In this document: positions 26,405 through 64,000 of the stretch, in pieces
Position numbering within the stretch: the stretch's first letter is position 1
How the letters are laid out: every line of letters starts with the position of its first letter
Source: a virus
Direction: 5' to 3' (one strand)
IMG/VR virus record: IMGVR_UViG_3300038417_000475
Location: 1 to 64,000 of that record
Length of the DNA: 64,000 nt
Program-made: the position numbers and the translations under genes
Notes under the pieces: model-generated
What the model was told of the DNA's origin: nothing
The model's input: the letters and a program-made list of their open reading frames with translations, nothing else
Databases searched by the model: none

Positions 26405-26415
26405 AACACGGTTGA

Positions 26416-26461: not shown

Positions 26462-26479
26462 TCTGTGGAAAGGAGCTTA

Positions 26480-48331: not shown

Positions 48332-49183
48332 CTAGAGCGACTTATTCTGCGACTGCGCGACTATGAGAGAGATCATCTCGAAGTCCGTGTCGTTGGTGGC
48401 CGTTGCCGGGCCATCAGGCATCACATCCACCAGCTGGGTCTTCAGAGGCGGGATGATGATGGGCTTCTCGAAGCGGGTGAACGAGACCTCCCTGCCGACG
48501 CCCCAGGTCTTCTTGTAGTTCCGGGAACAAGGCTGAGGAGGAGAAGCCGTGCCGCCCAGGGTGAACTGAATACCCTCGATCTTGGGGACCTGGATCTTCT
48601 CGATGGCTCCGAGATGGATCATGCCGGCATACTGCCACATGGTTTGCGACGGGATATAGCCGTTGGTTGGCTTGGTGCCACCAGTAAGACCAGTGGTCAA
48701 CCAGTCAAACACACCCGCCGAAGTGCCACCATAAAGACCTAGAGAAGCTGTCTTCAGTGGGTTCAACAGCACCCCGCCGACATCCTTCGGCCTCATCGGC
48801 CAGATATCGAGCTGGGTGCCCTGGGCCAGGATGCCGCCGAATGAAGACTGGGTCTGCCACTTCACCGCTTCGATGGTCGCCAGGATGTTCAGGATCTCCT
48901 CGGCGATCATGATGGCAATGTCCTCCTGCTCCTTATTGCGGAAGATCATGTCCAGCTTGGAACAGACGGCGTTGACTTCATCAGGCGATAACCCCATCAG
49001 GGTGAGGGCGACTGCCGTTTTTCCGGAGTCGATCAGGGCGGCTGTCCAGTTAAAGGACCCGCCGTTCAGGAATGCCAGGGAGCCCAGCGGACTGTTGACT
49101 GTAGACCAGTCGAAAGGCTTGGGGCCCGGTGGCGCCTGCTGGATGAGATTGTTATTCTTGCAAAACGTGTAGATAAGTGCCAT
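48332..49183 (-). CDS. candidate major capsid protein (possibly jelly-roll; fold not confirmed)
   Basis: Strong AAGGAGG RBS, strongly C/G-ending codons, helical N-half and beta-rich C-half (FEKPIIIPP...); heads the structural run. The ORF is solid, the function is inferred. Confidence 0.4.
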   Translation of the reverse strand: MALIYTFCKNNNLIQQAPPGPKPFDWSTVNSPLGSLAFLNGGSFNWTAALIDSGKTAVALTLMGLSPDEVNAVCSKLDMIFRNKEQEDIAIMIAEEILNILATIEAVKWQTQSSFGGILAQGTQLDIWPMRPKDVGGVLLNPLKTASLGLYGGTSAGVFDWLTTGLTGGTKPTNGYIPSQTMWQYAGMIHLGAIEKIQVPKIEGIQFTLGGTASPPQPCSRNYKKTWGVGREVSFTRFEKPIIIPPLKTQLVDVMPDGPATATNDTDFEMISLIVAQSQNKSL

Positions 49184-50055: not shown

Positions 50056-50081
50056 ATCCACACCTCCTTCGGTGATATTTG

Positions 50082-50144: not shown

Positions 50145-50170
50145 TTATTCGGTTATTGAATTACGGTATT

Positions 50171-50200
50171 AGACTATTAGAACGCTTCCTACGTTGTCAA
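50171..50200 (-). promoter_or_regulatory. class B promoter upstream of the structural run
   Basis: TTGACAACGTAGGAAGCGTTCTAATAGTCT. Confidence 0.75.
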
Positions 50201-50220
50201 TAGGGTATGCTCAATTTACG

Positions 50221-52539
50221 TTACATTTGATTGTCGATATACGTTTTCAGAAGCGAATAATTTATAAGTCCCCAACCGTAATCATTGCTCTTGGCTGAGG
50301 CATAATCGCCATATATCGACATCGCAGCCTTGATATGCTCCGTGGTCAGGACCTTCCCCTTTTTACGGGCATACTGGATCGCCAGGGCTGTCACGTATGC
50401 GGCATGGGGTGTGGCCATTGACGTGCCGGAAATCGCGGCAAGCTGCGGAGGTCCGTCTCCAAGCTGCATGGCTGCGATATATCCGTTGGAAGTCGAAAGG
50501 ATATCCACACCCGGAGCCACCACGTCGGGCTTGATGAATCCGGCTTTCGTGGGGCCTCGAGAGGAGAAGCTGGCTATGTTTCCGTGGATATCCACAGCTC
50601 CGACAGTCAACGCATCCGGTGAACAGCCGGGGCCTCCTACAGTCATCTGGCCAGGGCCGCTGTTGCCGGCAGCGATACAACAGATGATCCCAAGTTGCGT
50701 CATGGCGGTGATGGCCTGGCATTCCGGGTCATTCAGGTAATCATCGGGTTCGTCCCCTCCCAAAGACATCGAGATGATATCGGCTTTCCAGTGCAGAGCG
50801 TTCATCAGGCCGGCCAGTATCCAGCTTGCCATCCCTACGCCGATCCCGCCGCCCAGGACTTTGAACGGACGAACCTCTGCTCCCGGAGCTCCGCCCTTGA
50901 GCAACGCTCCTCGCGCAGGCCCGGCGAGAACCTTAAAAGGCCTCCCGCCGATGCAGGTGTTACACCAGGTATTGTGGATAAAAGCCATACCTTGTTTACC
51001 AGCAAGGTAATAAGGGCTTTCTGGGTCAAGGGTGAAATCATAGAGGAACCCCTTGAAGTCTATCTCCTCAACAGATTTGGGCAATAGGTAAGGGGCTGTT
51101 CTGTGAACTTCAGTGTAGAGAGGCCTTTTCAGCTTCAGGTAGGGAATCAACGCCTCGGTCATCCGGGTAAATCCTGCATCTACAGCAGATACTTGGTAAC
51201 AAACCTTCTTCCCTTTACCAGAAGGTTTCTGTTTTGTAAACCGTCCTCCAAAACCTAGAACACCGAACAGGCTAACGATTTGCTGTGCCAGTTGCCTTGA
51301 AGTAGTGCTAACCCTGCATCTAGCACGATCAGGGTCGAAATGACCATCACCATCTATGATCCCGGCCAGCACTGCCAGGAGTACATTCGTGGGTTGTTTT
51401 AAGAGCCTCTCCGGTATGGTATTCTCTTTCCGTCTTAGACCTAGCGCAATGAACTCTCTTTTCAATCCTGATACCTCAATGCTTCTACTCTTCTTGCGTT
51501 TTTTGGGAGTCCAAGCACAATAATGATAGCCGAGCTGCTTCAGATATGTCTCAATAGCAGGCCCTTCGTCATGGTGTAGAGAAAGGTTCACGGCACTGTG
51601 ATGGAAACAGCCCTCAGCTATGAACAGCCCTGCCAAGTAGGCCAGATCTGTATTCACAGTCTGTACGAAAGGCAGATTGATGATCTGCTCATTCGTAGCC
51701 AGACCGTAATTTCTATGGGACTGAATCAGGTCAGAAGCTCTCACATCCCTGTATCTTTTGCACCGTGGCTCATAGATTTTGAATGGATGCCACGGAGTTG
51801 TCACAAATTCAGATGTCCCGGCTTTCACTTTTATCAATTTGCCGTCGAAAGGAATCTTGTGTACAGCCAAGACCCTTACAGGTTTTCTGAAGCCGATCGT
51901 CCATGTGGGATCTACGGGTATTTTGGTAAATCCCAGTTCACTCTGGACCTCTGGAACCTTCAAATTCTCATAGAGGTCTTGGAATCGCACAAGGCCACAG
52001 AACGTAGTATAGACAAAGGCTTCTCCCTCAATGCAACCATGGCCGACCTCATCGAACATAAAAGGCTGGCCGGGTACCGATGATTTACCATGTCCGAAGT
52101 ATCCCTGGACCGCGAAATCCAAGGCTGTACCGGTATCGAGCACTGCAACTTTTACACCTTTGCCGGTGATACCGTCCGCGGCAGCTACGTCCGCTCCCAC
52201 CATCTGCCCGCTCACCGATGTCGGGATCCTCTCGTGCGAGGAGTCGGAGGCGGCATAAGCCATGGCTTTCGCCGGCCCCGTGATGGGGTTGGAGAGGAAG
52301 AGGTTGATGAACTTGGAAAACTTCTGATCTACCGGCATGGTGATGCGGATGGCCCGTATCTGCTCCGGTTTCACGTTGAGCACATAAGGCACAGCTTCTA
52401 TCGCCGCTACCTGGTTAGGCTGGATATCCACCTTCACAAAATTGAAATCGAGAGGAGCAGGGAATATACCCATCTTGGTCAGAGAAATGTTGACCTCGGC
52501 AAGATGAATAGGGTCTACCTGGACAAGGTATTTAGCCAT
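50221..52539 (-). CDS. subtilisin-like serine peptidase (S8) containing an intein (spliced product 417 aa)
   Basis: VAVLDTG (Asp), GHG|T (His), AAGNSG, SGTSMATPH (Ser); N-terminal I9-like propeptide. Confidence 0.92.
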   Translation of the reverse strand: MAKYLVQVDPIHLAEVNISLTKMGIFPAPLDFNFVKVDIQPNQVAAIEAVPYVLNVKPEQIRAIRITMPVDQKFSKFINLFLSNPITGPAKAMAYAASDSSHERIPTSVSGQMVGADVAAADGITGKGVKVAVLDTGTALDFAVQGYFGHGKSSVPGQPFMFDEVGHGCIEGEAFVYTTFCGLVRFQDLYENLKVPEVQSELGFTKIPVDPTWTIGFRKPVRVLAVHKIPFDGKLIKVKAGTSEFVTTPWHPFKIYEPRCKRYRDVRASDLIQSHRNYGLATNEQIINLPFVQTVNTDLAYLAGLFIAEGCFHHSAVNLSLHHDEGPAIETYLKQLGYHYCAWTPKKRKKSRSIEVSGLKREFIALGLRRKENTIPERLLKQPTNVLLAVLAGIIDGDGHFDPDRARCRVSTTSRQLAQQIVSLFGVLGFGGRFTKQKPSGKGKKVCYQVSAVDAGFTRMTEALIPYLKLKRPLYTEVHRTAPYLLPKSVEEIDFKGFLYDFTLDPESPYYLAGKQGMAFIHNTWCNTCIGGRPFKVLAGPARGALLKGGAPGAEVRPFKVLGGGIGVGMASWILAGLMNALHWKADIISMSLGGDEPDDYLNDPECQAITAMTQLGIICCIAAGNSGPGQMTVGGPGCSPDALTVGAVDIHGNIASFSSRGPTKAGFIKPDVVAPGVDILSTSNGYIAAMQLGDGPPQLAAISGTSMATPHAAYVTALAIQYARKKGKVLTTEHIKAAMSIYGDYASAKSNDYGWGLINYSLLKTYIDNQM
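50971..52035 (-). mobile_element. intein with LAGLIDADG homing endonuclease (355 aa)
   Basis: N-terminal CIEGE, TPWH, LAGLFIAEG and LAGIIDGDG, C-terminal IHN followed by Thr. Confidence 0.93.
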
Positions 52540-52546
52540 CTCTACC

Positions 52547-52942
52547 TCACTCTGTAGGGATATTCAAAGCGCCCTCAATACGTCCCAACCTGGTCGAGAT
52601 ATCCTGCAGGGGCTCTGCCAGTTCCTTTTGAGTCACGCAATTCTCAAGGTGAGCGGTTATCCGTGTATCTGTCACCGCTAGCGCCCCCTTGATTTCGGCC
52701 AGGTCCTTTATCATCCGGCCGCCTATGTCCACTAAACTTTTGTCCACTTCCGCCTTGTGATTTTCATGCGCTCTCCACAGTTTATCGAGAGAATCACCCT
52801 GGTCCTTCTGTACCTTCCCCTGGGCTTTCTGCGTATCCGTAATCTCCTGATACCGTCTCCCGAATGTCCATGCCGTGGTCAGGGCACCGGCAGCAACTCC
52901 TCCTACGCTGGAGATCGTATACCACAATGCGTTTAAGTCCAT
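52547..52942 (-). CDS. N-terminal TM plus coiled-coil protein
   Basis: Hydrophobic N-terminus; ends ...I..RL.RIEG. Confidence 0.6.
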   Translation of the reverse strand: MDLNALWYTISSVGGVAAGALTTAWTFGRRYQEITDTQKAQGKVQKDQGDSLDKLWRAHENHKAEVDKSLVDIGGRMIKDLAEIKGALAVTDTRITAHLENCVTQKELAEPLQDISTRLGRIEGALNIPTE

Positions 52943-52997
52943 ATCTCATCAACTTCACACCCACCCCCAGGCCTCACCCACAGGTTGACGGCCTCCT

Positions 52998-53390
52998 TTA
53001 TAAGCTACCTCTTGCCCCTTGCATATCTACCGACTGAGTCAGATGCGTTGTGGTGAAGGCGCTCAAGCCCGGCACCGCAGTACGCAGACCTTCAGGCACC
53101 GACTCTATCAGCTCGGGCGCGGCCTCTGTTACCTCAGGGGTTTGTATCTCAGGGGCTGCCGCAGCAACATTTGCTCGTATTTCGGAAATATCATTGATCA
53201 TGCCGGGAGTCGGCAACCGCTTTTTCGGCATCTTCCGGATATCGGTTATCATGCTGGTCTTTCCAACGGTAGGCAGATCAGGAAGCTGACCGGCCACACG
53301 GAGCAGTAATGGGGACACCCGAGGAAGAGCAGTGCCCTGCTCAACTTTTGAAATCCGAGAGGCAAATGTCTTTAACGGATTCATCTTCAT
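52998..53390 (-). CDS. paralog with shared C-terminal MQGARGSL tail
   Basis: PEGLRTAVPGLSAFTTTHLTQSVDMQGARGSL. Confidence 0.65.
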   Translation of the reverse strand: MKMNPLKTFASRISKVEQGTALPRVSPLLLRVAGQLPDLPTVGKTSMITDIRKMPKKRLPTPGMINDISEIRANVAAAAPEIQTPEVTEAAPELIESVPEGLRTAVPGLSAFTTTHLTQSVDMQGARGSL

Positions 53391-53395
53391 CCCCC

Positions 53396-54388
53396 CTAGA
53401 GTTTAGGTATCCTGTCCAATATGGGAGCCACCTTATTGATCTCAGTTTCAAGTTTTGACACTCTCGCCTTCAGGTCACTCACCGTACTCTCATCAGCTGT
53501 CAATTTGTCCTGGAGCGTAGCAATATTCTGGTTCGCGGCAGCCAGGGCCGCGTTCGCTTTATCCGTAGAAGCCTGGTTGGCATCATCGATTCTCTTGTTC
53601 AGTGCTGCCGTAGTCAGGGGGAATTCGTTCTCGAGGTCACCGATTCTGCCATCTGAGTTATTTATCTTGTCTGCCATCTTGGCATCAAGATCACTGATGT
53701 TCTGGTTGGCTGCCGCCAGAGCTGCATTGGCCTTGTCGGTGGCATCTGACTTGGCTTGGGCTAGTGCACTATCTGTATAATCTGTCCACAAGGGTCTTTC
53801 AGCTACAGAGGTGCTCTCAATCTGTGCTTTTATATTGGCCCAGTCATCTCCAGTCCTGTTCTTGATGTTGTCTAGCCTTGTCATAACCCCGTTAAGGTCA
53901 TCTCGCGCACTATCTATCTGACCCTGCAGGGCATCTCTGGCTGTACCCATATTCTGGTTGGCGGCAGCTAGCGCCTGATTGGACTTCAATGTGGCCCAAT
54001 CCGAGGCAATGGACACTACGCCCTGGTAGTCATCTCCGACTCTGTTTTTGAGGTCGTTCAGTCTTTGGACCGCAGCGGCTGCTTTAGCCTGTGCATCAGC
54101 TATTTGAGCCCGCGAATCAGATGCCCATTGCAGTAACTGGTTAATTTTCGTGTCTACTGCACCGTTTAGATTATCGAAAGTGGTGTTGAGGTCATTCAGC
54201 TTGTTCGCCGCAGTAAGGAGCGCATCAGCCACGTCATACAGGGCTGTATCGATGTCGTTGGCCGGGCCACCCAGAGAGGATATAACATTGGGCCAATGCC
54301 CGAGCTGTGCATAAATACTGTCTGCGACAGCCTTTACTTTTAGTCCAGCCTCCCCTATTTGGTCTTTGACATTGAGAATGTCTTGCAT
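53396..54388 (-). CDS. long coiled-coil protein with internal repeats
   Basis: Repeats TDKANAALAAANQN (x2-3) and RL..(L/I)KNR.GDD (x2). Confidence 0.7.
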   Translation of the reverse strand: MQDILNVKDQIGEAGLKVKAVADSIYAQLGHWPNVISSLGGPANDIDTALYDVADALLTAANKLNDLNTTFDNLNGAVDTKINQLLQWASDSRAQIADAQAKAAAAVQRLNDLKNRVGDDYQGVVSIASDWATLKSNQALAAANQNMGTARDALQGQIDSARDDLNGVMTRLDNIKNRTGDDWANIKAQIESTSVAERPLWTDYTDSALAQAKSDATDKANAALAAANQNISDLDAKMADKINNSDGRIGDLENEFPLTTAALNKRIDDANQASTDKANAALAAANQNIATLQDKLTADESTVSDLKARVSKLETEINKVAPILDRIPKL

Positions 54389-54850
54389 CTACTTCCTTCT
54401 GATCGTCTGCAATACCGCTATGGAACTCAAAGGGCTTTTCTTGTCCCACCCCATAAAGGTCTTGAATTCCTCAGGGGTGAACGAATCGTTGATCTTCCCC
54501 AGGTAGGTATCGCCAACCCTCTGGCCAATAATGGGGCCGACCACAGGCACGAATTCAAGCAGGTCAGCCAGGTCCCGGCCTATGGAGGCTTTGAGCGCGG
54601 CGCTGTGCCCCGGGGTCATCGAAGGGGCTTTGAGCTGGGGCAGACGCAGTTCGGGCAGAGTTACACTCCCGAATGGCGTCCCCATCTCGGCCTCCGGAAG
54701 ATACGGCGCTTTGTCCATAACAGCGTTGATCGCCTTGATAGGCGGAGAGCTGTCAAGTTTCCGGGAGACCTTCAGCGCCGCCCTCCCTAAGGTGCTCTCA
54801 AACGGGAGTTTGCTCGGTATCGGAGGGGGTGGTATCCGTATCGCACCCAT
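54389..54850 (-). CDS. Pro-rich hypothetical protein
   Basis: AGGGGGAG RBS. Confidence 0.6.
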   Translation of the reverse strand: MGAIRIPPPPIPSKLPFESTLGRAALKVSRKLDSSPPIKAINAVMDKAPYLPEAEMGTPFGSVTLPELRLPQLKAPSMTPGHSAALKASIGRDLADLLEFVPVVGPIIGQRVGDTYLGKINDSFTPEEFKTFMGWDKKSPLSSIAVLQTIRRK

Positions 54851-54859
54851 TCTCCCCCC

Positions 54860-55006
54860 TTATTTGGGTATTACGTCCGAGATCCGGGGCAGGAATTTGG
54901 GAAGCACAGACTCAACAGACTGGAAAATCTTGGGAACGCCGGGGATAGCAGGGAGCTTCGTCATCATTCGGACCAGACCCGTGGGCATAGCAACTTGAGC
55001 AGACAT
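54860..55006 (-). CDS. small amphipathic protein related to the 49683 N-region
   Basis: IPGVPKI..SVESVLP..LPRIS; GGAGGTG RBS. Confidence 0.55.
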   Translation of the reverse strand: MSAQVAMPTGLVRMMTKLPAIPGVPKIFQSVESVLPKFLPRISDVIPK

Positions 55007-55066
55007 AACAACACCTCCCGCACATTTTCTCCAAAAAGAGATGCCGAAACCCAAAAAGGTAATTCA

Positions 55067-55096
55067 AAACTAACGGAATCGGAGAAACGTTGTCAA
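55067..55096 (-). promoter_or_regulatory. class B-like promoter
   Basis: TTGACAACGT...N18 spacer...TAGTTT. Confidence 0.6.
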
Positions 55097-55106
55097 GAGG
55101 TTGTGC

Positions 55107-55406
55107 TTATTTTTGGTCTTTGCTGACTTCCCGCAGGAGTTCGATAATCTCAGGAGGAAGGTTCTCCGACAATTTCTTGGCGTCCGCCAGCATTTGACTG
55201 ACCGCCCTTATTTTCTCTATCGGCATCGAGCTGATCAGCCTCACCAGCTCCAGGCCGTTGTCTAAAGACTTGGGGTCTCCGGAGGTCAGGGCCTTGGCTT
55301 TGTCCAGAATCTCGCCGATCTGTTTGAGCTTCCTCTGGTCTATCGCTGCCAGGTCATGGACCAGCTGCTGCGCCTTGCCAACTCCATCAAAAATCTTCGG
55401 CATCAT
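55107..55406 (-). CDS. helical hypothetical protein
   Basis: AGGAGGT RBS. Confidence 0.6.
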   Translation of the reverse strand: MMPKIFDGVGKAQQLVHDLAAIDQRKLKQIGEILDKAKALTSGDPKSLDNGLELVRLISSMPIEKIRAVSQMLADAKKLSENLPPEIIELLREVSKDQK

Positions 55407-55416
55407 GGCAAACCTC

Positions 55417-56361
55417 CTACTCTATGACGCTCTGCGCTACGGAGCCCGTAATGAATTTATGGTCGATCTCCGGGCAGGCCATCAGGTCACTCGGGAAATC
55501 ATTGCCTTCCAGGTAGGGCAGGAACGGCTCTGCCAGCCTGTGGAATACAGCTTCGATCGCCGACTTCTTAAAATCCTCAGGGTGGACCTGGATATCGACA
55601 TACATGGCCTCTCCCATCCAGTTGCAGACCTCCTGGATGGTGGGAGGCTTGGGGTTTGTCAGCCAGTATTTGCCGGCGAGCTGCTGTTTGACGATGTAAT
55701 CCGCCACCGCGTCGACAGGGACCAGGTTGATATGCCCGTCCGGATTGCCTTTGACCCTGAACTGCGGTGTCAGAACAGGCAAACGCAACGTACCTTCGAT
55801 GGCCCGCCTCACAATCTCAGCCCTTTCATGGACTGCGCAGATTCCCCGGGCAAACTGGTAGAGGGCGCCCATCGAAGGCTTGATGATATTCATGCAGGGG
55901 ATGATCACCCCCGGCTTGAAGACAGCCTTGAAGAGCCAGGTCTGGGCATCGACCGCCTTCTCCGCCGCTTTCTTGGAGATCTCGTAGGAATTGCGCCCTA
56001 TGGTGTACGCCGTCCCAACGTAGAAAAGTTGCGATACGTTATAGCGTTTGCAGAAGTCGATTACATGAATAGTGCCATCGTAATTCGTCTTCCAGACCCG
56101 GTCTTCGTGCTTCGTTCCCAGGTTGATATCCGCCGCCAGGTGGTAAAGAGCGTCAAATCTGCGGACGTTAGCCTCGTCCTCTCTGACTCCCAGCAGATTC
56201 TCCACAATATCGCCATGGATGATATCCATATCCGGAAAGAGCTTCTTCGTTTTATCCACGTCGCGGGCTATGAGAGTCACGAGATCACCGCGCTCGATGA
56301 GTCGCGGTACCACTTCCTGCCCGAGCTGCCCCGATGCGCCTGTCACCAGAATCTTCATCAT
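55417..56361 (-). CDS. extended SDR oxidoreductase (fatty acyl-CoA/thioester reductase-like)
   Basis: ILVTGASGQLG, YHLAA, TN..GT, NSYEISK (YxxxK), NLVPVDAVA. Confidence 0.85.
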   Translation of the reverse strand: MMKILVTGASGQLGQEVVPRLIERGDLVTLIARDVDKTKKLFPDMDIIHGDIVENLLGVREDEANVRRFDALYHLAADINLGTKHEDRVWKTNYDGTIHVIDFCKRYNVSQLFYVGTAYTIGRNSYEISKKAAEKAVDAQTWLFKAVFKPGVIIPCMNIIKPSMGALYQFARGICAVHERAEIVRRAIEGTLRLPVLTPQFRVKGNPDGHINLVPVDAVADYIVKQQLAGKYWLTNPKPPTIQEVCNWMGEAMYVDIQVHPEDFKKSAIEAVFHRLAEPFLPYLEGNDFPSDLMACPEIDHKFITGSVAQSVIE

Positions 56362-56379
56362 TACCTCCACAGTTCCTTA

Positions 56380-56821
56380 TTAAACCGCCAAGGCAAATTG
56401 CCGCCGTTGCTTTTGGCAGGCACGGCAAAATCTATAACCATGCCAGGCATACGTATTTTCTTCATCAAAAGGATGCCCATGCTTACAAGCTGTTTTCTTG
56501 GCATTCAAGGCAGTCGGGCTAAGACCACGAAGAAGATTTATCTTAAGCGGAACAGGCTCCAAATGCCCTGGATTCACGCATAAGGTATTTATGCAGCCTC
56601 TAGCCTTCACATGATCTAGCGTATAACTTTCAGGTATGGGCCCCACCATGAGTTCATAGGAAAAACGGTGTGCCAACACATGCTTGCCATTAACTTTAAA
56701 CATCCCATACCTAAGCCCACCCCTACCACTACTAGTACCTGCCTGCCAGAGCCAGCAGGCATCAGGATCAGTATGAGGCCCGACTTTCTCCCAAAACCGC
56801 TCTTCAACTGTTTTTTTTCAT
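56380..56821 (-). pseudogene. HNH homing endonuclease with a +1 frameshift in an A8 run after the start codon
   Basis: With A7 it reads MKKTVEERFWEKV...CWLW...AHRFSY...LDH...C.N.LCVNPGHL; the ATG overlaps the upstream stop. Confidence 0.8.
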
Positions 56822-57084
56822 CGTCGGTTATCACAGCCCTTATGGCTATAGTGGGCATCCTTCCCCTTTTTGCCCACCCTCATCAGTGTGCCACCTCCTC
56901 GCCCACAGTGCACGCAGACAATCGGCCCTCCGGGAGCTGGAGGCGGTAAGCCCGGGACAGCATCCAGGATAGGGATGTCCGAGACCAACTTCCCGGGCAC
57001 CTTTGGGTATTGATCCATCAATTCCCGCAAGTGAACCAGAGACTGGGTGGCACTCCCCACCAGCACAACTCGTTTCTCGTCCAT
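56818..57084 (-). CDS. small zinc-finger hypothetical protein
   Basis: CVHC...H..C. Confidence 0.5.
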   Translation of the reverse strand: MDEKRVVLVGSATQSLVHLRELMDQYPKVPGKLVSDIPILDAVPGLPPPAPGGPIVCVHCGRGGGTLMRVGKKGKDAHYSHKGCDNRR

Positions 57085-57085
57085 A

Positions 57086-58234
57086 TCAAGCCCAGTAGAG
57101 CAAAATTCCATACGTTTTGAAGCCGGCGCCCATTGTGAGCACCAGGCCCCAGTCGCCCGGCTGGGCCTGCTCTTTCGCCAGGCGCCCGATTGAAGCAATG
57201 GTAGCAGAACTCTGGTTACCCTGCTGCCTCAGGATTTGCCTCGAGTAAGCCAGCTTCTCCTCCGGGATCTTCAGGCGATCGCGGATATTGTCCAGGACTT
57301 TGACCCCGCCCGGGTGAATAATAAGGTGTTTGATGTCGCGCAGCGTCATCCCCGGGACCTGTTCCAGGATTCTGTTTACCACCCTCTCGACCAGCACAGG
57401 TGCCACCTTCGGCACATCCTTGTCCAGCTTCACCTTCAGCCGGCCGTCCACCCAGTCAAAGCCAAGATAGTCAATATAGCGGCGGTCGAACTCTTCGGCA
57501 AAAGCCCAGATCCAGGGGTGCTTCGGGTTGTCATCCTGCCCGATCAAACAGGCACAGGCCCCGTCGCTGAAAATGGCATTGGCCACCGTATTCTCCAGGT
57601 CTTTCTCCGGAGCCGGGTAGAACGTGGCGGTGCAGATCTCCGCCGTTATTACCAGCGCGGGGTAGCCCGTCTGCATGAAATGGTCATGGGCCCTGCGGAT
57701 AGCCGGAGCTCCGCCAACGCACCCGCCTCCGATCATATCGGTATGCTCAATATCAGAGGGCAGCTTCAGCAGCATCGAATAAAAGTAACTCAGAGAGGGG
57801 CAGAGCAGCCGGGGTTGCGTTGTGGTAGCAAAGGTGATTGAGCCGATGTCCTTACGGATCTCTAAACCTTCGATGCACTGTAAGGCGGCTTCCAGCCCCA
57901 GGTTTACAGCACCCGCCTCATATTCCTGGCACATCTGCTCAAAGGTCATATTACGCAGCTTGCTGGGATGAATCCAGCACGGCCGCCGGTCGATCCCGGA
58001 ATTCTTGAAGATATTCCAGACCCGTTGAGACGTGTAGCCCAGGGCATCATATGCTTCCTTCTGGGTCACAAATGTCTTGGGGACTGCGGTACCCAGTGAG
58101 ATGATCTTGGCCCTCTTCGGCTTCCGATAATAGGCCGCCGAGCGTTGGGGGGCTGCCTCTTCCTGCCGTTTAATAGTTTCAGGAGTCCGGGTATCCGGAA
58201 AGCCGTTCAGGTCTGGTCTGGTTGCAATCATCAT
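57086..58234 (-). CDS. type III polyketide synthase (chalcone/alkylresorcinol synthase family)
   Basis: Catalytic triad GGGCVGG (Cys), IHPGG (His), GNQSSA (Asn); AEIC, AIFSDGA, MGAGF. Confidence 0.95.
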   Translation of the reverse strand: MMIATRPDLNGFPDTRTPETIKRQEEAAPQRSAAYYRKPKRAKIISLGTAVPKTFVTQKEAYDALGYTSQRVWNIFKNSGIDRRPCWIHPSKLRNMTFEQMCQEYEAGAVNLGLEAALQCIEGLEIRKDIGSITFATTTQPRLLCPSLSYFYSMLLKLPSDIEHTDMIGGGCVGGAPAIRRAHDHFMQTGYPALVITAEICTATFYPAPEKDLENTVANAIFSDGACACLIGQDDNPKHPWIWAFAEEFDRRYIDYLGFDWVDGRLKVKLDKDVPKVAPVLVERVVNRILEQVPGMTLRDIKHLIIHPGGVKVLDNIRDRLKIPEEKLAYSRQILRQQGNQSSATIASIGRLAKEQAQPGDWGLVLTMGAGFKTYGILLYWA

Positions 58235-58449
58235 ACCCCCGGAGCTTTCGGCATCGGCTGGTCAAATGCGTGGGCATAATCTTCCAAAGCCACATAGTAA
58301 TCCACTACACCCTTCCTGAATTCTGGGGTTTCTATAAGAAGCTCCATCAGTTTTCTGAAACCATCACGGCCTAATCCCCTGATTTCTTCCGGGCTCAGTA
58401 TATAATCTGGATCCTTCTGGTACTTTTCAAAAATCTCTTCCGGCTTCAT
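58231..58449 (-). CDS. hypothetical protein
   Basis: AAGGAGG RBS, ATGA overlap. Confidence 0.55.
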   Translation of the reverse strand: MKPEEIFEKYQKDPDYILSPEEIRGLGRDGFRKLMELLIETPEFRKGVVDYYVALEDYAHAFDQPMPKAPGV

Positions 58450-58460
58450 TTAGGCCTCCT

Positions 58461-59423
58461 TCATTTCGCCACCGCCTGGCTGATGACCAGTGCCAGCATC
58501 CACAGGAACATCACCCCCATTGCCGCCATAATCGCCTTGTTGTTGAATTTCAGCTCAGCCTGCTTGACGTCCGGCTTTGTTTCGCAGACCGCCAGGATGC
58601 AGTAGATAAACGGCGGCATGAGGGCCAGAGTAGAGAGCGTCAGCGGCGCTAGGTACCCGCCGATGACAAGGGCTATCTGGATGATGTACGCAAAGCCCAG
58701 CAGTGTACACGTAAAGAGCACCGGGTTGACTCCCGTCTTCCAGGCCAGGGCGCCCATGTTGCGGAGTCCGGAACTCCAGTTGACATCCGCATCGAACGCC
58801 TGGTCGATGAATTCCGCGCCAAACCCAAACGTCCAACCGAAAACTAGCCCTGCCATAAAAGCCGGGCCGAAATTGTGGAACACAAATGTGCTGGAGGCCG
58901 CAGCTCCAAGACAACATGCCAATGGCCCAAAGCCCAAACCCAACACAGTCTCGCAGGCATAATGTAATTTACCGAGGGAATAAAACGGAGAACAGAGAGC
59001 TGATAGCCCCCATGGCAGCCAAATCCAAGCTGAGGCATAGTGAGCAATGATCGCAGCCACTACCGCAGACGCAGCCAACCAGCAGAGGGCATTGACAAGA
59101 ACTTCAGTTGGCTTCATCAAGCCAGTCACAATGACCTGGTTGCCGCTGGTGTAGGACTTCGGCTTCGAGGTATCATCGCCGATATGGTCAATCCCTGTAG
59201 TATAGTCAAAGAATGTATTGAGTGAGTGTTCCCCAGCCATCAATAGACCAGAGCAGACGATTGCTAACGCAATCAGCCAGCCCGCAGCGCCGGTGAGAAT
59301 GCAACCGAGGGCCACGGCACATCCGGCTGCTGGCAATGCAAAGGGTCTACTTAATATGACTATGTGGATTCTTGCTCTTTGTAGTAACGAAAGTCCTGAT
59401 TTTGGCAGTAACTTTTGGCTCAT
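58461..59423 (-). CDS. UbiA-family (MenA-like) membrane prenyltransferase
   Basis: SRP..LP, NTFFDYTTGID (NxxxDxxxGxD), DQAFD, 8-9 TM segments. Confidence 0.9.
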   Translation of the reverse strand: MSQKLLPKSGLSLLQRARIHIVILSRPFALPAAGCAVALGCILTGAAGWLIALAIVCSGLLMAGEHSLNTFFDYTTGIDHIGDDTSKPKSYTSGNQVIVTGLMKPTEVLVNALCWLAASAVVAAIIAHYASAWIWLPWGLSALCSPFYSLGKLHYACETVLGLGFGPLACCLGAAASSTFVFHNFGPAFMAGLVFGWTFGFGAEFIDQAFDADVNWSSGLRNMGALAWKTGVNPVLFTCTLLGFAYIIQIALVIGGYLAPLTLSTLALMPPFIYCILAVCETKPDVKQAELKFNNKAIMAAMGVMFLWMLALVISQAVAK

Positions 59424-60144
59424 CCTTCAGTTCCTCCTCCCAAATAACGAGGCATTTGATTCCAAGAGCATTATAAGCCATGATTCTACCGAGCTCTGTT
59501 CGTCTCCACTTTGGATTGTTCCCTTCGTGCCAATAGCGTCCGAAGGCTTCAATCACCATTTTGCGGCCATTTTTATTGAAGAAATCAGGGATCATCCCAT
59601 CAATAATAACCTTGCCATCACCAGTGTATTCCCATTCGCCTGGATAGTCCCTCTCCAGCAGTACCTCCAGGTTCTTCTCCAGCTTCGTTGGCTTAATCAA
59701 TGCCCTATTTGATTCAGCCCTTAATTGTCGATATGCCCTAGAACTTGTCCAGCACTTCGAGGAACAATATTCACCTGTCCCCTTAGTAGTCATAGCTGAC
59801 CTTGGAACTCTGAAATCCCTCCCACAATTCAGGCAAATGCGGGCTACCCTCCTATTTCTATGATCTGAGCATTTCCGGGAGCAGAATTTCCGGGTACGCC
59901 GCAACCCCGGTTCCTTCACTGGGAGGGTTTTGCCACATTTAGCACAAGAGATGATTCTGGGTTCTTTCTTAACCCAATTCTTGCTGAAATTCTTCACAAT
60001 GGTCTGATAATCTTGAGGAAGAGAGCCAAACCAAACTAGGCGGCAGGGATTCGAACAAAAGTTGTGCTCACGTACTAGCCAGGAAGCTTTCTGAAATTGC
60101 TTGCCACACGTAGTGCAGGTTACCTCACGCATTACAGTTGTCAT
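59347..60144 (-). CDS. zinc-finger-repeat Vsr/PD-(D/E)xK-like endonuclease (probable free-standing homing endonuclease)
   Basis: Three CxxC...FCSxxC repeats; IPDF, IEAFGRYWH, LVIWEEE. Confidence 0.8.
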   Translation of the reverse strand: MTTVMREVTCTTCGKQFQKASWLVREHNFCSNPCRLVWFGSLPQDYQTIVKNFSKNWVKKEPRIISCAKCGKTLPVKEPGLRRTRKFCSRKCSDHRNRRVARICLNCGRDFRVPRSAMTTKGTGEYCSSKCWTSSRAYRQLRAESNRALIKPTKLEKNLEVLLERDYPGEWEYTGDGKVIIDGMIPDFFNKNGRKMVIEAFGRYWHEGNNPKWRRTELGRIMAYNALGIKCLVIWEEELKDEPKVTAKIRTFVTTKSKNPHSHIK

Positions 60145-60791
60145 ATTAGCTTACATAGTGCCATTACCAAAGCACTCGCAAGGGGTATGGAGAAATTATC
60201 ATCGATATATCTTGTAGTTTTCGTGAATCTTTCTGCAAGCACAGCAGTAATGGCCCCGACAGCGCCAATCCAGTAGGGTTGGATGAAGTATGCGAGCAAG
60301 AGACAGGTTACCACCATACCCACGCTGCCCCACAATCCTTTGACTTCTCTCCCATAGACACGGCTACGGATGAGCCCCGTTATCGCATCCCCTCCCCCCA
60401 TGAACGTCAGAGGAACTATTGCCAACCAGGGTTCGTGGTATATCCCCCAGAGAACGCCGATGAGAACAGCTCCGGTGGCTGGGAAATGTATTTCGGCTAG
60501 AGCATCTAATCTCCCGGAGCCACCCACACCACGGAAAAGACCAGGGCGGAAAACCCTGGCATAAAGTAACAGGATTGTGAATCCGGCTGTCAGAATAAAT
60601 GGCCACCAGAAATTATGGAACAGGAAAGGCATCAGAAGAAATCCAAGACAACCCCCCAGGTGACCTATTTTCCTGCTGATATACTGCGGCACTTTATAGT
60701 CATAGAAGAGATTGGCCAGATACAAGGACGTGAGAACTCCGAGGAGTATCAGGGCAACGTATGGCAATTCGTGTACGTAGCTCATTCTCAT
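60141..60791 (-). CDS. CTP-dependent isoprenoid-alcohol kinase (phytol/dolichol kinase family)
   Basis: SRKIGH, GDAITGLI, KGLWGS, DDNFSIP; polytopic membrane protein. Confidence 0.85.
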   Translation of the reverse strand: MRMSYVHELPYVALILLGVLTSLYLANLFYDYKVPQYISRKIGHLGGCLGFLLMPFLFHNFWWPFILTAGFTILLLYARVFRPGLFRGVGGSGRLDALAEIHFPATGAVLIGVLWGIYHEPWLAIVPLTFMGGGDAITGLIRSRVYGREVKGLWGSVGMVVTCLLLAYFIQPYWIGAVGAITAVLAERFTKTTRYIDDNFSIPLASALVMALCKLI

Positions 60792-61186
60792 CTCCCTAAA
60801 TGCAGCATCTTTTTGATTTCCTTGAGCCAGTCTTCTATAGCCTGCATCAGCTCTTCGGTATCGTAGAGTTCCTCCGTACCGCTGACCATGATAAGCCGGT
60901 GCGCCTTTGCCGCCCTCGGGGTTATCACACCGTCAACAAGGTCGAAGAACGTATCTTCGTGCATCAGGATCTTGTTCCGCACTTCACACGGTTCTTCGAG
61001 AAGGTGCAGCTTTCCCTCGTAGTATTTGAGGTAGAAAAGGCCTCCTTCTTCCCCCAGTACTTTGAGTTCAGCGGCCCGCCCCTCCGCGGACTTCAGCTTT
61101 TCTTTGATCTCTGCCGGCAGCCGCTGCATCAGGGAAGCCTGCCGTTTTTCCGCTCGCGCGAGTAGATCTGCAACAAGGCCAGCCAT
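60788..61186 (-). CDS. SCP2 (sterol carrier protein-2-like) lipid-binding protein
   Basis: GG.FYL....G.L......I.M..DTF..L..G...P..A.....I.VSG. Confidence 0.7.
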   Translation of the reverse strand: MAGLVADLLARAEKRQASLMQRLPAEIKEKLKSAEGRAAELKVLGEEGGLFYLKYYEGKLHLLEEPCEVRNKILMHEDTFFDLVDGVITPRAAKAHRLIMVSGTEELYDTEELMQAIEDWLKEIKKMLHLGR

Positions 61187-61196
61187 ATACCCTCCT

Positions 61197-62192
61197 TTAA
61201 GTGAGTTTGGCTATAACTCTCCCGCCCATTTTAGTTATTCCCCTCTTGACCCTCTGCCCCCTTGATTCTCTCCGGAGTGTAACCGGCTTGGCTGTCAAAA
61301 TATCCTGCGCCAGTTTTGTAAAATACGGTTTCAATGCGTTCATGTCCGGGGTCTGGGGAATGGACATCAGAAACGGGATCCCGCAATCCCTGGCCTCTTT
61401 TCCCATAGCTAGCTTGGGGGAAAGCAGCTGGTGGCTCACCCTCCCGCAGCTCGGGCACAAATAGCCGTCCATCATCGAGAGAAGACCGATTATGGGCACT
61501 TCCTCGAGCCTCAAAAAGTCGACGGTTCTCCTCATGCCGAGTGCCGAGATTTCTGACGGTTGGGAGACTATAATCACACCTAGCAGTCCACTTAGGTGCT
61601 CAAAAAACGAGAAAACTTCGGATGCAGTTGATGGCGGCATATCCGCCAGAAGAATCTCCGTGTCATCGGGCCACTGCACCTGTTCCGATAAGAGTTGACG
61701 GATGATTGAAGCCCTGTTGGAAACATACGTTTGTTTCAGGTACCAGGCCTGATGGTTATACACATCGGCTTCCTGAACGATCTCGAAGGAAGAATGTACG
61801 TCGGGATTCTTCTCGAGAAACTCTTTGCATTTCTGTACGATGTCCTGATTGGCCTTCAGCCAGTTCTGCACCTTCTCCATCACTTCATCGGGGATCTCAA
61901 CGGTGCCCGTCTCACCCTTCCACATGACGGAATTAGCTTCGCCAAAATGAGCACAAATCGAGAACAGATAATATCCGTTGATTTCCGGAGGAATGAGCTT
62001 GCGTTGTTCCGTTGATGTTTTGATGCGTGGGGGTTCCGAGAGCCCCAACGCCTTGTGAAGTGTACTGCCGCTCAGGTCGATATCCAGAAATCCGACCCTG
62101 TGCCCCATATCGCGTAATGCCAGCCCCAGAAGTGCCGTAACGGTGCTTTTCCCGACCCCGCCCTTCTGGCTCCAGACCGCGATTTTTTTCAC
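61197..62192 (-). CDS. Mrp/ApbC/NBP35-family P-loop ATPase (Fe-S carrier-like) with internal insertion
   Basis: SQKGGVGKSTV, DIDLSG, DMPP, CPSCG; probable leaderless GTG start at 62192. Confidence 0.85.
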   Translation of the reverse strand: MKKIAVWSQKGGVGKSTVTALLGLALRDMGHRVGFLDIDLSGSTLHKALGLSEPPRIKTSTEQRKLIPPEINGYYLFSICAHFGEANSVMWKGETGTVEIPDEVMEKVQNWLKANQDIVQKCKEFLEKNPDVHSSFEIVQEADVYNHQAWYLKQTYVSNRASIIRQLLSEQVQWPDDTEILLADMPPSTASEVFSFFEHLSGLLGVIIVSQPSEISALGMRRTVDFLRLEEVPIIGLLSMMDGYLCPSCGRVSHQLLSPKLAMGKEARDCGIPFLMSIPQTPDMNALKPYFTKLAQDILTAKPVTLRRESRGQRVKRGITKMGGRVIAKLT

Positions 62193-62199
62193 GTTCTTG

Positions 62200-62229
62200 A
62201 TTATATGCGCACGTTTCTTACGTTGTAAA
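62200..62229 (-). promoter_or_regulatory. class B promoter (leftward arm of divergent pair)
   Basis: TTTACAACGTAAGAAACGTGCGCATATAAT. Confidence 0.75.
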
Positions 62230-62259
62230 TGCCCCAAACGCGCACTGCCTCGCGCTCTA

Positions 62260-62288
62260 TTTACAACGCAATGCGCACGTTTTATAAT
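62260..62288 (+). promoter_or_regulatory. rightward promoter of divergent pair (leaderless)
   Basis: TTTACAACG...N17...TATAAT, with the ATG 7 nt downstream. Confidence 0.7.
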
Positions 62289-62295
62289 CCGATTT

Positions 62296-62541
62296 ATGAC
62301 AATAGAAAACACTACTGAAACCCAGCCTGAAACCCCGGCAGCAGATGTCCCATCGGAAGTCTATCGTTTGACTGTGGAAATGCCCGAAAAGTACCGTAAA
62401 ATTCTGAAGACTGCGGCGCAGCAGGCATTTCTCCTGAAGAAGATAGATGAGCCCTCGGTACACAACGTAATGAACCTCTTCATTAACCTGGGGCTTCAGT
62501 ATCTGGTGGACGAAGGCCGCAGAGCACAAGGCTACAGATGA
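62296..62541 (+). CDS. putative ribbon-helix-helix regulator
   Basis: RLTVEMPEKYRKILKTAA...SV..VM...I..GL pattern. Confidence 0.55.
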   Translation: MTIENTTETQPETPAADVPSEVYRLTVEMPEKYRKILKTAAQQAFLLKKIDEPSVHNVMNLFINLGLQYLVDEGRRAQGYR

Positions 62542-62801
62542 CCCACGAGCGTCTGGAAACGCTGCGTTACATTGGGCAATGGCGGGTAGTCACCGCAGAT
62601 GGCGTCGCCTCCGCCCTGGGCATATCATATAACACAGCAGTCAGACGGCTGGAACGTATGAGGGATATGGGGCTGGTCAGATCGGACACCAACTTCGTCA
62701 TGCAAAAGGAATTCGGCCCGGTGCATTTGGACTGGAGCCTCACCAGAAACGGAAGAAAGAGGCTCGAATATTTTGAACAACATCTTCGGGAGGTGGCATA
62801 A
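62538..62801 (+). CDS. winged-helix DNA-binding protein
   Basis: TADGVASALGISYNTAVRRLERMRDMGLV...W.LT..G. Confidence 0.8.
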   Translation: MTHERLETLRYIGQWRVVTADGVASALGISYNTAVRRLERMRDMGLVRSDTNFVMQKEFGPVHLDWSLTRNGRKRLEYFEQHLREVA

Positions 62802-64000
62802 TGGCCAACAAAAAAACAAGGAAAACAGCACATCGCAAATCCCAACGGAAACCAGCTGCAACTGCCGGCGTCGACCTCGCAAATCCAACGGAAATAGAGA
62901 CCGGCGGCAGTGAACATCCCCCGCTGCCGGGGAGACGCCCAAGTCTGGAGATGGATTCAGGCTTGGACGGTGGGAGCGAGCCGCCACCTACCGAGACCGA
63001 GAAGCCCATGCCCAACGAGACCACTGCCTTTGAGAACCTGTTGCGCGACATGGGGGTTTCTGACGAGTTTATCAAGCCCATAACGGTGTACTGCTCCCAG
63101 GAAAATCTCAAGGACCTGCCCAGGCTGTACGAGAATCTCTGGGATATGGGCATCTCGAATGTTCACCTGCGCCGGCGCATCATCAACTTCTGGGCCAGGT
63201 CAATCGGAATCAAGGTCCCCAAAGAGCTGACTCAACAGTTTATAGTGCATGATCAAAGTGCGCCGGAGGCTACTGTACGCAACAGCTCCGGAGGCCTGAG
63301 ATGGATAGTTGAGGATGACGGTGCAGGCAATCCCAAGCTGCGCCCCAGCAGGCAAAACGAGGCAGGGATGACCCTCGCGGAGGCCAAGGCTGCCATCAGG
63401 GAAATGCGTGATCAGGGCGGCCAGGGCGCTGAGCCTATCGTGGAATTCAATGCTGAGACACAACAGTACACACCCAATCCCAAGTCAGCCTGGGTTAAAG
63501 CTAATCCGGCAGCAGCCTGGGCAACTGCCCATGACTTCACTCGCCACATGCAGGAAGGGAATCCAGCGGACCCTGTTGATATTATGGCAGAACAGCTTAG
63601 TAGAGTGGAAACTATCAAACAGTCCCTCGGTCTCAAACCGGACGCAAAAACTGGCACAGATGATGTCTTTGATGCCATCGCCAAGGTGGACGAAATCGCC
63701 AGGAATCGCAACCAGGGGGGAGGGCAGCCGGCATGGATGGCAGACCCTGTAACCTTCGTGAATACAATCAGGAACATGAATCCGCAGCCAACGGGGCCGG
63801 ATCCAGTGATAATGGCACAGATGGCTGAAATGAAGGAAGATGTCAAGGCGGCCAGGGCTGAGAACCAGGCCTTGAAAGACCAGATACAGAATGACAGAAT
63901 GGAGGCCCTCAGGCAGCAGAACCAGGCTATCCTGACACAGCTTCAAGAAGTGCGAACGGAACTCGCCAGGCCCCGGGACGGAGTGACTGCCCTGGGCGTC
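62801..64000 (+). CDS. large hypothetical protein with coiled-coil region (3' truncated, not in ORF track)
   Basis: GGAGGTG RBS, TAATG overlap; MANKKTRK... reads open towards the window end. Confidence 0.65.
   Translation, partial: MANKKTRKTAHRKSQRKPAATAGVDLANPTEIETGGSEHPPLPGRRPSLEMDSGLDGGSEPPPTETEKPMPNETTAFENLLRDMGVSDEFIKPITVYCSQENLKDLPRLYENLWDMGISNVHLRRRIINFWARSIGIKVPKELTQQFIVHDQSAPEATVRNSSGGLRWIVEDDGAGNPKLRPSRQNEAGMTLAEAKAAIREMRDQGGQGAEPIVEFNAETQQYTPNPKSAWVKANPAAAWATAHDFTRHMQEGNPADPVDIMAEQLSRVETIKQSLGLKPDAKTGTDDVFDAIAKVDEIARNRNQGGGQPAWMADPVTFVNTIRNMNPQPTGPDPVIMAQMAEMKEDVKAARAENQALKDQIQNDRMEALRQQNQAILTQLQEVRTELARPRDGVTALGV

Follow-up and report, generated by a model that had tools for sequence, protein, structure and literature searches.

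A conserved operon with a type III polyketide synthase and putative lipid-modifying membrane enzymes in a lineage of virus-like elements from anoxic environments

The gene run described in this study lies on the minus strand at positions 62229 to 55107 of the virus record IMGVR_UViG_3300038417_000475 and includes genes for a type III polyketide synthase (PKS) and a prenyltransferase-like membrane protein. The closest described systems are cellular lipid operons and the lipid pathway of a giant virus. The agq cluster of Actinoplanes missouriensis is reportedly chromosomal, is said to contain a monooxygenase and a methyltransferase, and is said to produce alkyl-O-dihydrogeranyl-methoxyhydroquinones. 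The agq cluster is like the present run in that a fatty-acyl-primed type III PKS and a UbiA-type membrane prenyltransferase yield a prenylated phenolic lipid; compared by description only, it is unlike it in that it is not known to have a kinase or CdsA-like protein, an SCP2-like protein, a ParA/Mrp ATPase, or a thioester-reductase-like short-chain dehydrogenase/reductase (SDR). Membrane-containing viruses of prokaryotes are generally considered to obtain lipids from their hosts, and the known virus-encoded lipid pathways are those of giant viruses of eukaryotes. The sphingolipid product of one of these, the Emiliania huxleyi virus, reportedly ends up in the virions.

A sphingolipid pathway encoded by that virus is reported to rewire the host lipids (PMC10583209, PMC6502432). 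The Emiliania huxleyi virus resembles the present case as a large DNA virus with a multi-gene lipid pathway and differs from it as a eukaryotic giant virus with a host-acquired pathway of the serine palmitoyltransferase type, whereas the elements described here are prokaryotic and would combine polyketide and prenyl chemistry. In Streptomyces and Mycobacterium, the Srs and polyketide-quinone (PkQ) operons (pkqA-C) encode a PKS, a methyltransferase, and an oxidoreductase/hydroxylase (PMC9927152). According to the passages of that source on these operons, the type III PKS of these operons makes a membrane-resident lipid of the alkylresorcinol type, as is proposed here, and the operons are three-gene units for which no prenyltransferase is mentioned. 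The operon described here is without their tailoring genes, and hydroxylation with O2 is improbable in the anoxic habitats in which it occurs. None of the closest cellular systems has the gene set of this operon.

Our interpretation, which we hold with moderate confidence, is that the run is a single late-type operon and the signature module of a lineage of elements probably infecting Dehalococcoidia, and that it makes a membrane-resident, polyketide-derived lipid. The window (64,000 nt) makes up the start of a contig of 85,151 bp. The compact run contains six lipid-type genes within 55417-62192, and its features are as follows, in gene order (aa, amino acids; ORF, open reading frame).

62200..62229 (-): promoter-like site, TTTACA-18 nt-TATAAT, with 11 of 12 consensus positions and including the recurring motif TTTACAACG at 62221-62229
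61197..62192 (-): ParA/MinD-class P-loop ATPase of the Mrp/NUBPL type (PF10609)
60788..61186 (-): SCP2-like small soluble protein, 132 aa (weak Pfam SCP2 match; homologues)
60141..60791 (-): membrane protein of eight predicted helices, 216 aa, resembling the superfamily of dolichol/phytol kinases and CdsA/CarS cytidylyltransferases
59347..60144 (-): ORF with a Zn-ribbon and a Vsr-like (PD-(D/E)xK) endonuclease-like domain, a mobile insert whose position varies in relatives
58461..59423 (-): putative membrane prenyltransferase of the UbiA superfamily, 320 aa (family profile)
58231..58449 (-): 72-aa ORF with no assigned function; the 93%-identical relative L054 is the sole other locus that has it
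57086..58234 (-): type III PKS, with the N and C domains of Pfam and an intact Cys172-His307-Asn340
56380..56703 (-): HNH-type endonuclease-like ORF, a mobile insert (HNH_3-like, 23.2 bits, just below the cutoff of 24.8)
55417..56370 (-): extended SDR of the NAD_binding_4/thioester-reductase type (PF07993)
55107..55406 (-): 99-aa helical protein, kept directly downstream of the SDR in several relatives

The initial annotation had named six genes here, for an Mrp ATPase, an SCP2 protein, a phytol/dolichol-type kinase, a UbiA-like prenyltransferase, a type III PKS, and an extended SDR. All six are present on the minus strand at these coordinates, and three of the identities are indirect; the HNH-like ORF, the Zn-ribbon/Vsr-like ORF, and the 72-aa ORF inside the run are additional to them. 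Intergenic gaps or overlaps are at most 11 bp throughout the run, except around the HNH-like ORF, and the 99-aa gene probably marks the end of the transcription unit. The ORF of the ATPase is open to 62312, and because all homologues begin at approximately residue 41, in agreement with the GTG codon at 62192, this codon, at which the run also ended in the initial annotation, is the likely start. Only 7 nt separate it from the -10 hexamer, so that the mRNA of the operon is probably leaderless. The motif TTKACAACG occurs seven times in the window, against 0.54 expected, and none of 100 shuffles reaches seven; one copy (62221-62229, minus strand) lies ahead of the operon and another (55088-55096, minus strand) ahead of the next gene block. 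The "class B" promoter motif that had been described as common to the run and the genes downstream is thus real and ties the operon to the genes next to it. A second copy in the opposite direction (62260-62268) lies ahead of a divergent 469-aa gene, which is also kept beside the operon in relatives.

The PKS matches Chal_sti_synt_N and Chal_sti_synt_C of Pfam with 62.9 and 56.2 bits, respectively (cutoff, 27), and each of the 19 aligned sequences has C172, H307, and N340, a triad that aligns with the GC, HPGG, and GN.SS motifs of Mycobacterium tuberculosis Pks11 (PDB 4jao). Judged by these features, its identity as a type III PKS is secure. Pks11, a type III PKS of the alkylpyrone (long-chain) type with which the catalytic motifs align, is the best solved relative and gives a full-length profile match (E = 2.5e-42); it is a distant relative only, and the viral clade is separate from all sampled cellular PKSs. 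No NCBIfam equivalog is reached, the best being DpgA (NF042429, 153.3 bits versus a cutoff of 425). The SDR matches PF07993 with 62.6 bits (cutoff, 20.1). Its TGxxGxxG motif and Y129-x3-K133 are invariant, with T10, G11, G14, Y129, and K133 fixed in 18 sequences, and the thioester-reductase domain of MxaA (PDB 4u7w) is its best solved relative (E = 2.2e-21). The SDR remains below the cutoff of TIGR01746 (49 versus 213 bits), and since its matches span mainly the Rossmann half, they do not fix its substrate. A gene for an acyl carrier protein (ACP) lies beside or near the PKS gene in seven relatives (G001, 34490-34735; L070, L075, L077, L078, L067, and L152), which, together with the MxaA-like SDR, indicates carrier-bound acyl chemistry; no ACP-like ORF of at least 50 aa was found in the 85-kb genome of the window itself.

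The 320-aa protein alone weakly matches NCBIfam PRK12884 (E = 7.7e-4) and no Pfam family at E ≤ 0.01, and its family profile matches AfUbiA (PDB 4tq3) with an E value of 0.09. A chromosomal homologue from Dehalococcoidia passes Pfam UbiA (PF01040; 48.6 bits versus a cutoff of 34.2), and the family profile of the 320-aa protein aligns with this homologue over 296 columns (hhalign probability, 100%; E = 2.1e-86); on this basis the protein is assigned to the UbiA superfamily. UbiA enzymes have two Asp-rich motifs, NDxxDxxxD and DxxxD. The second is intact and invariant (D207-x3-D211-x3-N215), and the protein thus appears to keep a diphosphate-binding motif.

The family of the 216-aa protein has at least 642 members in metagenomes, and most of the 120 matches listed are unnamed; among them, two JGI entries are named "dolichol kinase" and one UniRef entry, from a viral metagenome, is named "Phosphatidate cytidylyltransferase". 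The nearest clusters of the ESM Atlas are those of phosphatidate cytidylyltransferase, dolichol kinase, and phytol kinase (scores, 0.95 to 0.96). In VIA-align, the AlphaFold2 model (pLDDT, 92) weakly matches CdsA (4q2e; Z-score = 7.3, 160 residues) and CarS (5guf; Z-score = 6.5, 99 residues), which are the sole membrane enzymes among the matches, and the invariant residues of the family include R40, G134, D135, and D197-D198-N199. The sequence and model suggest that the protein works like the kinase/cytidylyltransferase superfamily, and it is not filed here as a member; the profile search against the PDB returned nothing usable.

The UbiA-like and 216-aa genes adjoin each other in most relatives and are also paired in one Dehalococcoidia chromosome. 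There, the contig G153:C28 carries the 216-aa/UbiA pair only (14612-16215, L147), between trmD and a two-component system and near ftsZ, ftsA, mraW, and mraZ, and the pair thus links the module to Dehalococcoidia. A small polytopic enzyme of the kinase/cytidylyltransferase type is likewise paired with an enzyme of the UbiA family in phytol/prenol salvage (VTE5/VTE6 with VTE2/ChlG) and, in archaea, in digeranylgeranylglyceryl phosphate (DGGGP) synthase with CarS. The present pair differs from these in that there is no second kinase, no geranylgeranylglyceryl phosphate (GGGP) synthase, and no match to PF01148, and in that its two genes share an operon with those of a PKS, a reductase, an SCP2-like protein, and an ATPase.

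The 132-aa protein matches Pfam SCP2 (PF02036) below the cutoff (16.2 versus 21.3 bits; E = 0.013). SCP2 is matched by 5 of its 11 homologues (best E = 1.6e-5), and the family profile matches the SCP2 structure 4uei with an E value of 0.1. The protein therefore looks SCP2-like at the level of the family, and it is presumed to carry hydrophobic intermediates. The ATPase matches PF10609 with 138.7 bits (cutoff, 27.1), is below the MrpORP equivalog cutoff (130 versus 450 bits), and has the deviant Walker A motif KGGxGK[ST] in all 15 homologues. In the carriers Mrp, NBP35, and ApbC, a conserved CxxC motif bridges an iron-sulfur (Fe-S) cluster. The protein in the window has this motif as CPSC, and it is kept in only 5 of the 15 homologues; because the other 10 have lost it, Fe-S delivery was rejected as the general, conserved role of the ATPase.

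With the PKS alignment, 131 loci were fetched from IMG/VR, GTDB genomes, and metagenomes, and at least two operon proteins are found in 34 of them. Twelve loci (nine distinct elements) carry the Mrp, SCP2-like, 216-aa, UbiA, PKS, and SDR genes in the same order, so that the coherent module proposed in the initial annotation is borne out by its conservation and is no chance neighbourhood. Five of the six genes also occur in four more IMG/VR records, among which BLAST matched the SCP2-like gene in G001 alone. G001 (69,475 bp) and G404 (64,886 bp) have terminal repeats and a CheckV completeness of 100%, and the other two records are fragments of 40.8 and 55.8 kb. Close relatives of the PKS (58 to 66% identity) are encoded on metagenome contigs whose length reaches 92 kb. 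The operon proteins are 27 to 61% identical between complete genomes, and by tblastn G404 and the present genome have in common only the operon and one small four-Cys (Fe-S-like) protein. Judged from these comparisons, the operon is the best-conserved part of the lineage and a hallmark of it, not a recent acquisition from a host. The lineage itself consists of undescribed virus-like elements of double-stranded DNA, 40 to 100 kb in length, from anoxic peat, sediment, and groundwater.

In the PKS tree (99 rows, in which identical sequences were entered once and matches aligned over fewer than 280 residues were excluded), 24 PKSs with at least one operon neighbour and 2 on short contigs, without a neighbour in the ORF search, form one clade (SH-aLRT, 100). 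This clade stands apart from the cellular PKSs sampled, with a sister group from Acidobacteriota, and its long internal branches are consistent with an old divergence. Among the 50 GTDB loci, operon genes are co-located only in L004 and L005, both on contigs of Dehalococcoidales metagenome-assembled genomes (MAGs). Throughout its 41 kb, the contig of L005 has genes in common with G000 and G001, and by its gene content it is a binned virus-like contig; no cellular copy of the operon was thus found among these 50 loci. A recent, intact copy of a host operon, which had been named as a result that would undo the proposal, was rejected on these grounds: the operon occurs in related viruses, the PKS clade is separate, L005 is virus-like throughout, and a cellular operon was not found in the GTDB loci.

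The host is probably a member of Dehalococcoidia. The strict family of the 216-aa protein is present in 3 of 401 sampled Dehalococcoidia genomes and in 2 of 401 sampled genomes of the phylum. MAGs of Dehalococcoidales and of Patescibacteria include related contigs, and some relatives carry the NCBI label Patescibacteria. The genes of an early module (17693-28296), which encode a sigma factor, a 130-aa protein, a clamp-like protein, a P-loop ATPase, and a 326-aa protein, stand in the same order on the Dehalococcoidia MAG contigs G215:C29 and G343:C37, and the P-loop ATPase of this module has an 81% homologue on a 1.84-Mb contig.

Catalogued phages offer no counterpart. Neither the PKS nor the UbiA-like protein has a homologue in 50,697 GenBank phages, the 216-aa protein has one weak match among them (MT836065; 30.8% identity, E = 1e-4), and the DNA of the operon matches none of them. 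Searches of IMG/VR yielded no relative with the PKS alone and one 24% match, on a 439-kb record, with the PKS alignment. In the literature, we found no virus or phage with a type III PKS, no such cluster, and no jelly-roll virus of Dehalococcoidia, in agreement with the earlier statement that no virus with this cluster is known; nor is any described bacterial virus known to build such a lipid.

The contig IMGVR_UViG_3300038417_000475 is classed by IMG/VR as a complete virus record from peat, and its first 127 bp recur at its end as a terminal repeat. Contigs from four other peat/wetland runs tile 50000-64000; the segments 57487-60799 and 61503-63976 are spanned by mismatch-free pieces of independent runs, and other pieces cross the SDR/99-aa junction. 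This tiling was made with assembled contigs, not reads. At least two thirds of the sampled words of the operon are present in 24 peat/wetland runs from 23 studies, with no RNA run listed, and 13 contigs, the longest of 85,382 bp, encode the identical PKS protein. Because independent runs tile the region and bridge the upstream boundary without mismatch, the operon is not an assembly artefact; the contig is not chimeric across the operon or its upstream boundary, a possibility that the initial annotation had named as one that would refute its proposal.

The block downstream of the operon, which is conserved in relatives, contains beta-rich proteins, a protease, small proteins, and the following candidate capsid protein.

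48332..49183 (-): protein of 283 aa, helical at its N-terminus and with a jelly-roll domain, a candidate capsid protein (structure model, conservation)

The model of this protein (pLDDT, 88) consists of the N-terminal helices and the jelly roll, and 49 representative relatives are known. The major capsid protein of Sulfolobus polyhedral virus 1 (SPV1; PDB 6oj0) is its best solved match in two programs, VIA (Z-score = 6.7, RMSD = 3.7, 137 residues, 12% identity) and Foldseek (probability = 0.98, E = 2.8e-3), and Foldseek also matches VP2 of infectious bursal disease virus (E = 1.2e-3). SPV1 (Portogloboviridae) is said to be a non-tailed virus with an inner membrane, an archaeal host, and a genome of approximately 20 kb. 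The 283-aa protein is unlike the SPV1 capsid in that the match is weak and an extra N-terminal helical domain is present. The neighbours of the protein in the Atlas are clusters mostly of viral sequences, and it has no match in the GenBank phages or in 72,556 PLSDB plasmids. Its profile search found no homologue in G404-G406. An absence from G404, which this search and a hidden Markov model of the family suggested, was rejected, because a comparison of profiles identified the syntenic ORF of G404 as a distant homologue (probability, 90.9%; E = 1.2e-6).

The product of the operon is most likely a prenylated polyketide membrane lipid; we infer its substrates, the order of the steps, the product, and its use from sequence. 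The type III PKS would extend a long-chain acyl starter (host acyl-CoA or, where a relative has its own ACP gene, acyl-ACP) with malonyl units to a head of the alkylpyrone or alkylresorcinol type, and the thioester-reductase-like SDR would reduce a thioester or keto group of the starter or the product. In the membrane, the UbiA-family enzyme would join a diphosphate-activated isoprenoid chain to the product of the PKS and SDR. The 216-aa protein, as a CTP-dependent kinase or a cytidylyltransferase, would supply or activate an isoprenoid alcohol or lipid phosphate with a nucleotide, while the SCP2-like protein may ferry hydrophobic intermediates between the soluble and the membrane enzymes and the ParA/Mrp ATPase may be a conserved helper, to which no role is assigned. 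The lipid would be made for the infected-cell membrane or for the particle, and it is probably made late in infection, given the promoter motif that the operon has in common with the presumed particle genes beside it. A quinone-like product, which the initial annotation had also entertained, is unlikely: the habitat is anoxic, and the tailoring enzymes of the agq type and the Srs/PkQ type (monooxygenase, hydroxylase, and methyltransferase) were not seen in the operon, for which reason this product was rejected. A more specific form of the proposal is that the elements are non-tailed, membrane-containing viruses of Dehalococcoidia-like bacteria that make their own non-phospholipid membrane lipid, a prenylated polyketide, for the virion or an assembly compartment, with the operon rather than a capsid gene as their best-conserved hallmark; we consider this unlikely at present.

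Several points weigh against our interpretation. The product is not readable from sequence, and the tailoring enzymes of the agq type and the Srs/PkQ type are absent from the operon. The first Asp-rich motif of the UbiA-like protein is degenerate (N69-x3-D73, the next invariant Asp being D79). The 216-aa protein has no Pfam or NCBIfam match, nor has any of 17 homologues or of 5 further homologues (searches of the PF01148 clan at E ≤ 1 for the 17 family members and at E ≤ 0.1 for the 5 more; NCBIfam at E ≤ 1); its VIA Z-scores are below approximately 13, the trusted level of this tool for helical bundles, Foldseek returned nothing usable for its model (E = 1.1), and a kinase is not distinguishable from a cytidylyltransferase. 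The pair on G153 means that part of the module, the two membrane steps, has a cellular counterpart. The module recombines, because the identities are mosaic across the operon, in which the nearest relatives switch at the Vsr-like ORF (L068, 75%, for the 216-aa protein; L055, with 72, 62, and 59% for the UbiA-like protein, PKS, and SDR, respectively). The matches of the jelly roll are weak (Z-score < 8), and BFVD returns mixed fibre, C1q, and capsid entries. In 95 ORF translations of the contig, Pfam detected neither a terminase or portal nor an HK97 capsid, a tail family, or a packaging ATPase of the FtsK type, and PHROGs, with 20 proteins, found no structural family and no terminase or portal; these scans cover part of the ORFs of the contig. 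Virus status is hence probable and unproven, resting on the automatic classification and the jelly-roll protein.

That the elements are true viruses is nevertheless well favoured, and the claim of viral origin stands in the classification and the jelly-roll protein and falls short in the recognised packaging genes. The opposite view, that they are plasmids or extrachromosomal elements of Dehalococcoidia-like bacteria and that the operon belongs to ordinary cellular secondary or lipid metabolism, would account for the scanned ORFs being without a terminase, portal, known capsid family, or packaging ATPase, for the binning of related contigs in Dehalococcoidales and Patescibacteria MAGs, for the homologue of the replication-module ATPase on the 1.84-Mb contig, and for the presence of an integrase. 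We regard it as unlikely: five such records are classed as viral in IMG/VR, three of them with terminal repeats, one homologue of the 216-aa protein comes from a "viral metagenome", the conserved adjoining block of beta-rich proteins, protease, and small proteins includes the jelly-roll protein, whose best solved matches are capsids and which is unmatched in the 72,556 plasmids, and inteins and homing endonucleases are dense in the 85-kb genome, as they are in large phages. Among the Pfam matches of the contig were helicase domains of the UvrD and DnaB types, an ATP-dependent ligase, a C5 methylase, LAGLIDADG and HNH endonucleases, and an intein-split S8 protease, besides Gp3-like, DUF5131, integrase, and Ku genes, which together with the inteins and homing endonucleases fit a virus-like nature; PHROGs found one clamp-like and one Ku-like protein. 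The only small P-loop protein, at 26465-27319, was considered as a packaging ATPase and is not so called; it has no PDB relative, its PHROG match is unnamed, a few of its homologues have AAA_25 or AAA domains, and it sits in a replication-type module.

Two endonuclease-like ORFs interrupt the operon. The best PDB match of the Zn-ribbon/Vsr-like ORF is a "mobile intron protein" (3r3p, E = 0.038), and Vsr-like ORFs are found at differing positions of the operon in L060, L066, L076, L078, and G001 (32252-33196). In the wetland run X19, a contig joins 56359 straight to 56905 and so is without 56360-56904 and the HNH-like ORF, which is a presence/absence polymorphism of a mobile endonuclease gene; in this HNH-free allele the PKS and SDR are brought close together, as in relatives. 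The operon might on this account be an accessory cassette that homing endonucleases have spread between unrelated elements, rather than an ancestral core. The varying positions of the endonuclease genes, the mosaic identities that break at the Vsr-like endonuclease, the HNH-free allele in one run, and the fact that G404 and the present genome share almost nothing else by BLAST would all fit such a history. We think it quite improbable, as the genes for the 99-aa and 153-aa proteins, the protease, and the jelly-roll protein accompany the operon in most of the longer loci, the jelly-roll protein is detectable at the syntenic place even in G404, and the long internal branches of the PKS clade fit an old divergence.

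For the chemistry, the initial annotation had proposed a different route, in which the SDR forms a fatty alcohol, the 216-aa protein phosphorylates it, and the UbiA-like enzyme attaches the alkyl chain to the aromatic head made by the PKS, resulting in a two-tailed, glycerol-free lipid. MxaA, the best solved relative of the SDR, reduces carrier-bound thioesters to alcohols, ACP genes stand in the operon of seven relatives, and the 216-aa protein resembles kinases of long-chain alcohols. UbiA enzymes use allylic diphosphates through two Asp-rich motifs, a saturated alkyl monophosphate is no known donor, there is one kinase-like gene only, and no feature of the sequence favours fatty alcohols over prenols for the kinase, which leaves this route very doubtful. 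Least probable of all is a route resembling that of ether lipids, in which the UbiA-like enzyme, acting like an archaeal DGGGP synthase, O-prenylates a phosphorylated alcohol backbone from the PKS and reductase (e.g., an alkane-diol), a CarS/CdsA-like 216-aa protein forms a CDP-lipid, and host head-group enzymes finish it: the best UbiA matches are of the archaeal type (PRK12884 and AfUbiA 4tq3), no membrane enzymes other than CdsA and CarS appear among the fold matches of the 216-aa protein, its gene and the UbiA-like gene lie side by side in most relatives and as a pair in a Dehalococcoidia chromosome, and a PKS with a thioester reductase can yield diols, but all of the supporting matches are weak, there is no gene resembling a GGGP synthase, the nearest solved PKS makes pyrones, and the operon has no head-group transferase.

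Other proteins of the window accompany the features described above. The S8 subtilase at 50221-52539 (Peptidase_S8, E = 7.8e-37) has an intein-like insert with LAGLIDADG/Hom_end domains after its GHG motif, and G001, G404, and G002:C45 have a different, 223-aa protein in the corresponding neighbourhood. The proteins encoded at 49237-49683 and 52998-53390, which are otherwise dissimilar, share a near-identical C-terminal tail of 40 residues (...EGLRTAVPGLSAFT..HLTQSV.MQGARGSL), which could be a signal for targeting, cleavage, or assembly. A 330-aa coiled-coil protein (53396-54388) has weak matches, below the cutoffs, to Apolipoprotein A1/A4/E and tape-measure-like families; within the particle block it may bind lipids or act as a scaffold. 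The small four-Cys protein carries an intein in the window (9764-11245), and its intein-free homologues lie in or beside the lipid operon of L067 (13275-13610), L071, L075, L076, L086, and G404 (53143-53460). The intein-free form has only two PDB matches, both high-potential iron-sulfur proteins (E = 0.017 and 0.031), and it may be an Fe-S electron carrier accessory to the module.

The interpretation that we prefer, a late-type operon for a membrane-resident polyketide-derived lipid, describes a six-gene pathway whose conservation exceeds that of any structural gene in a widespread lineage of virus-like elements from anoxic environments. The lipid would represent a new class and a possible biomarker, and the combination of a type III PKS, a UbiA-family enzyme, a kinase-like protein, and a thioester reductase would be a new enzyme set. 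If the product is a structural or membrane-remodelling lipid, it would change what a prokaryotic virus can supply for itself, and if it is the lipid of the virion, these elements would be the first prokaryotic viruses known to encode the synthesis of their own structural lipid.

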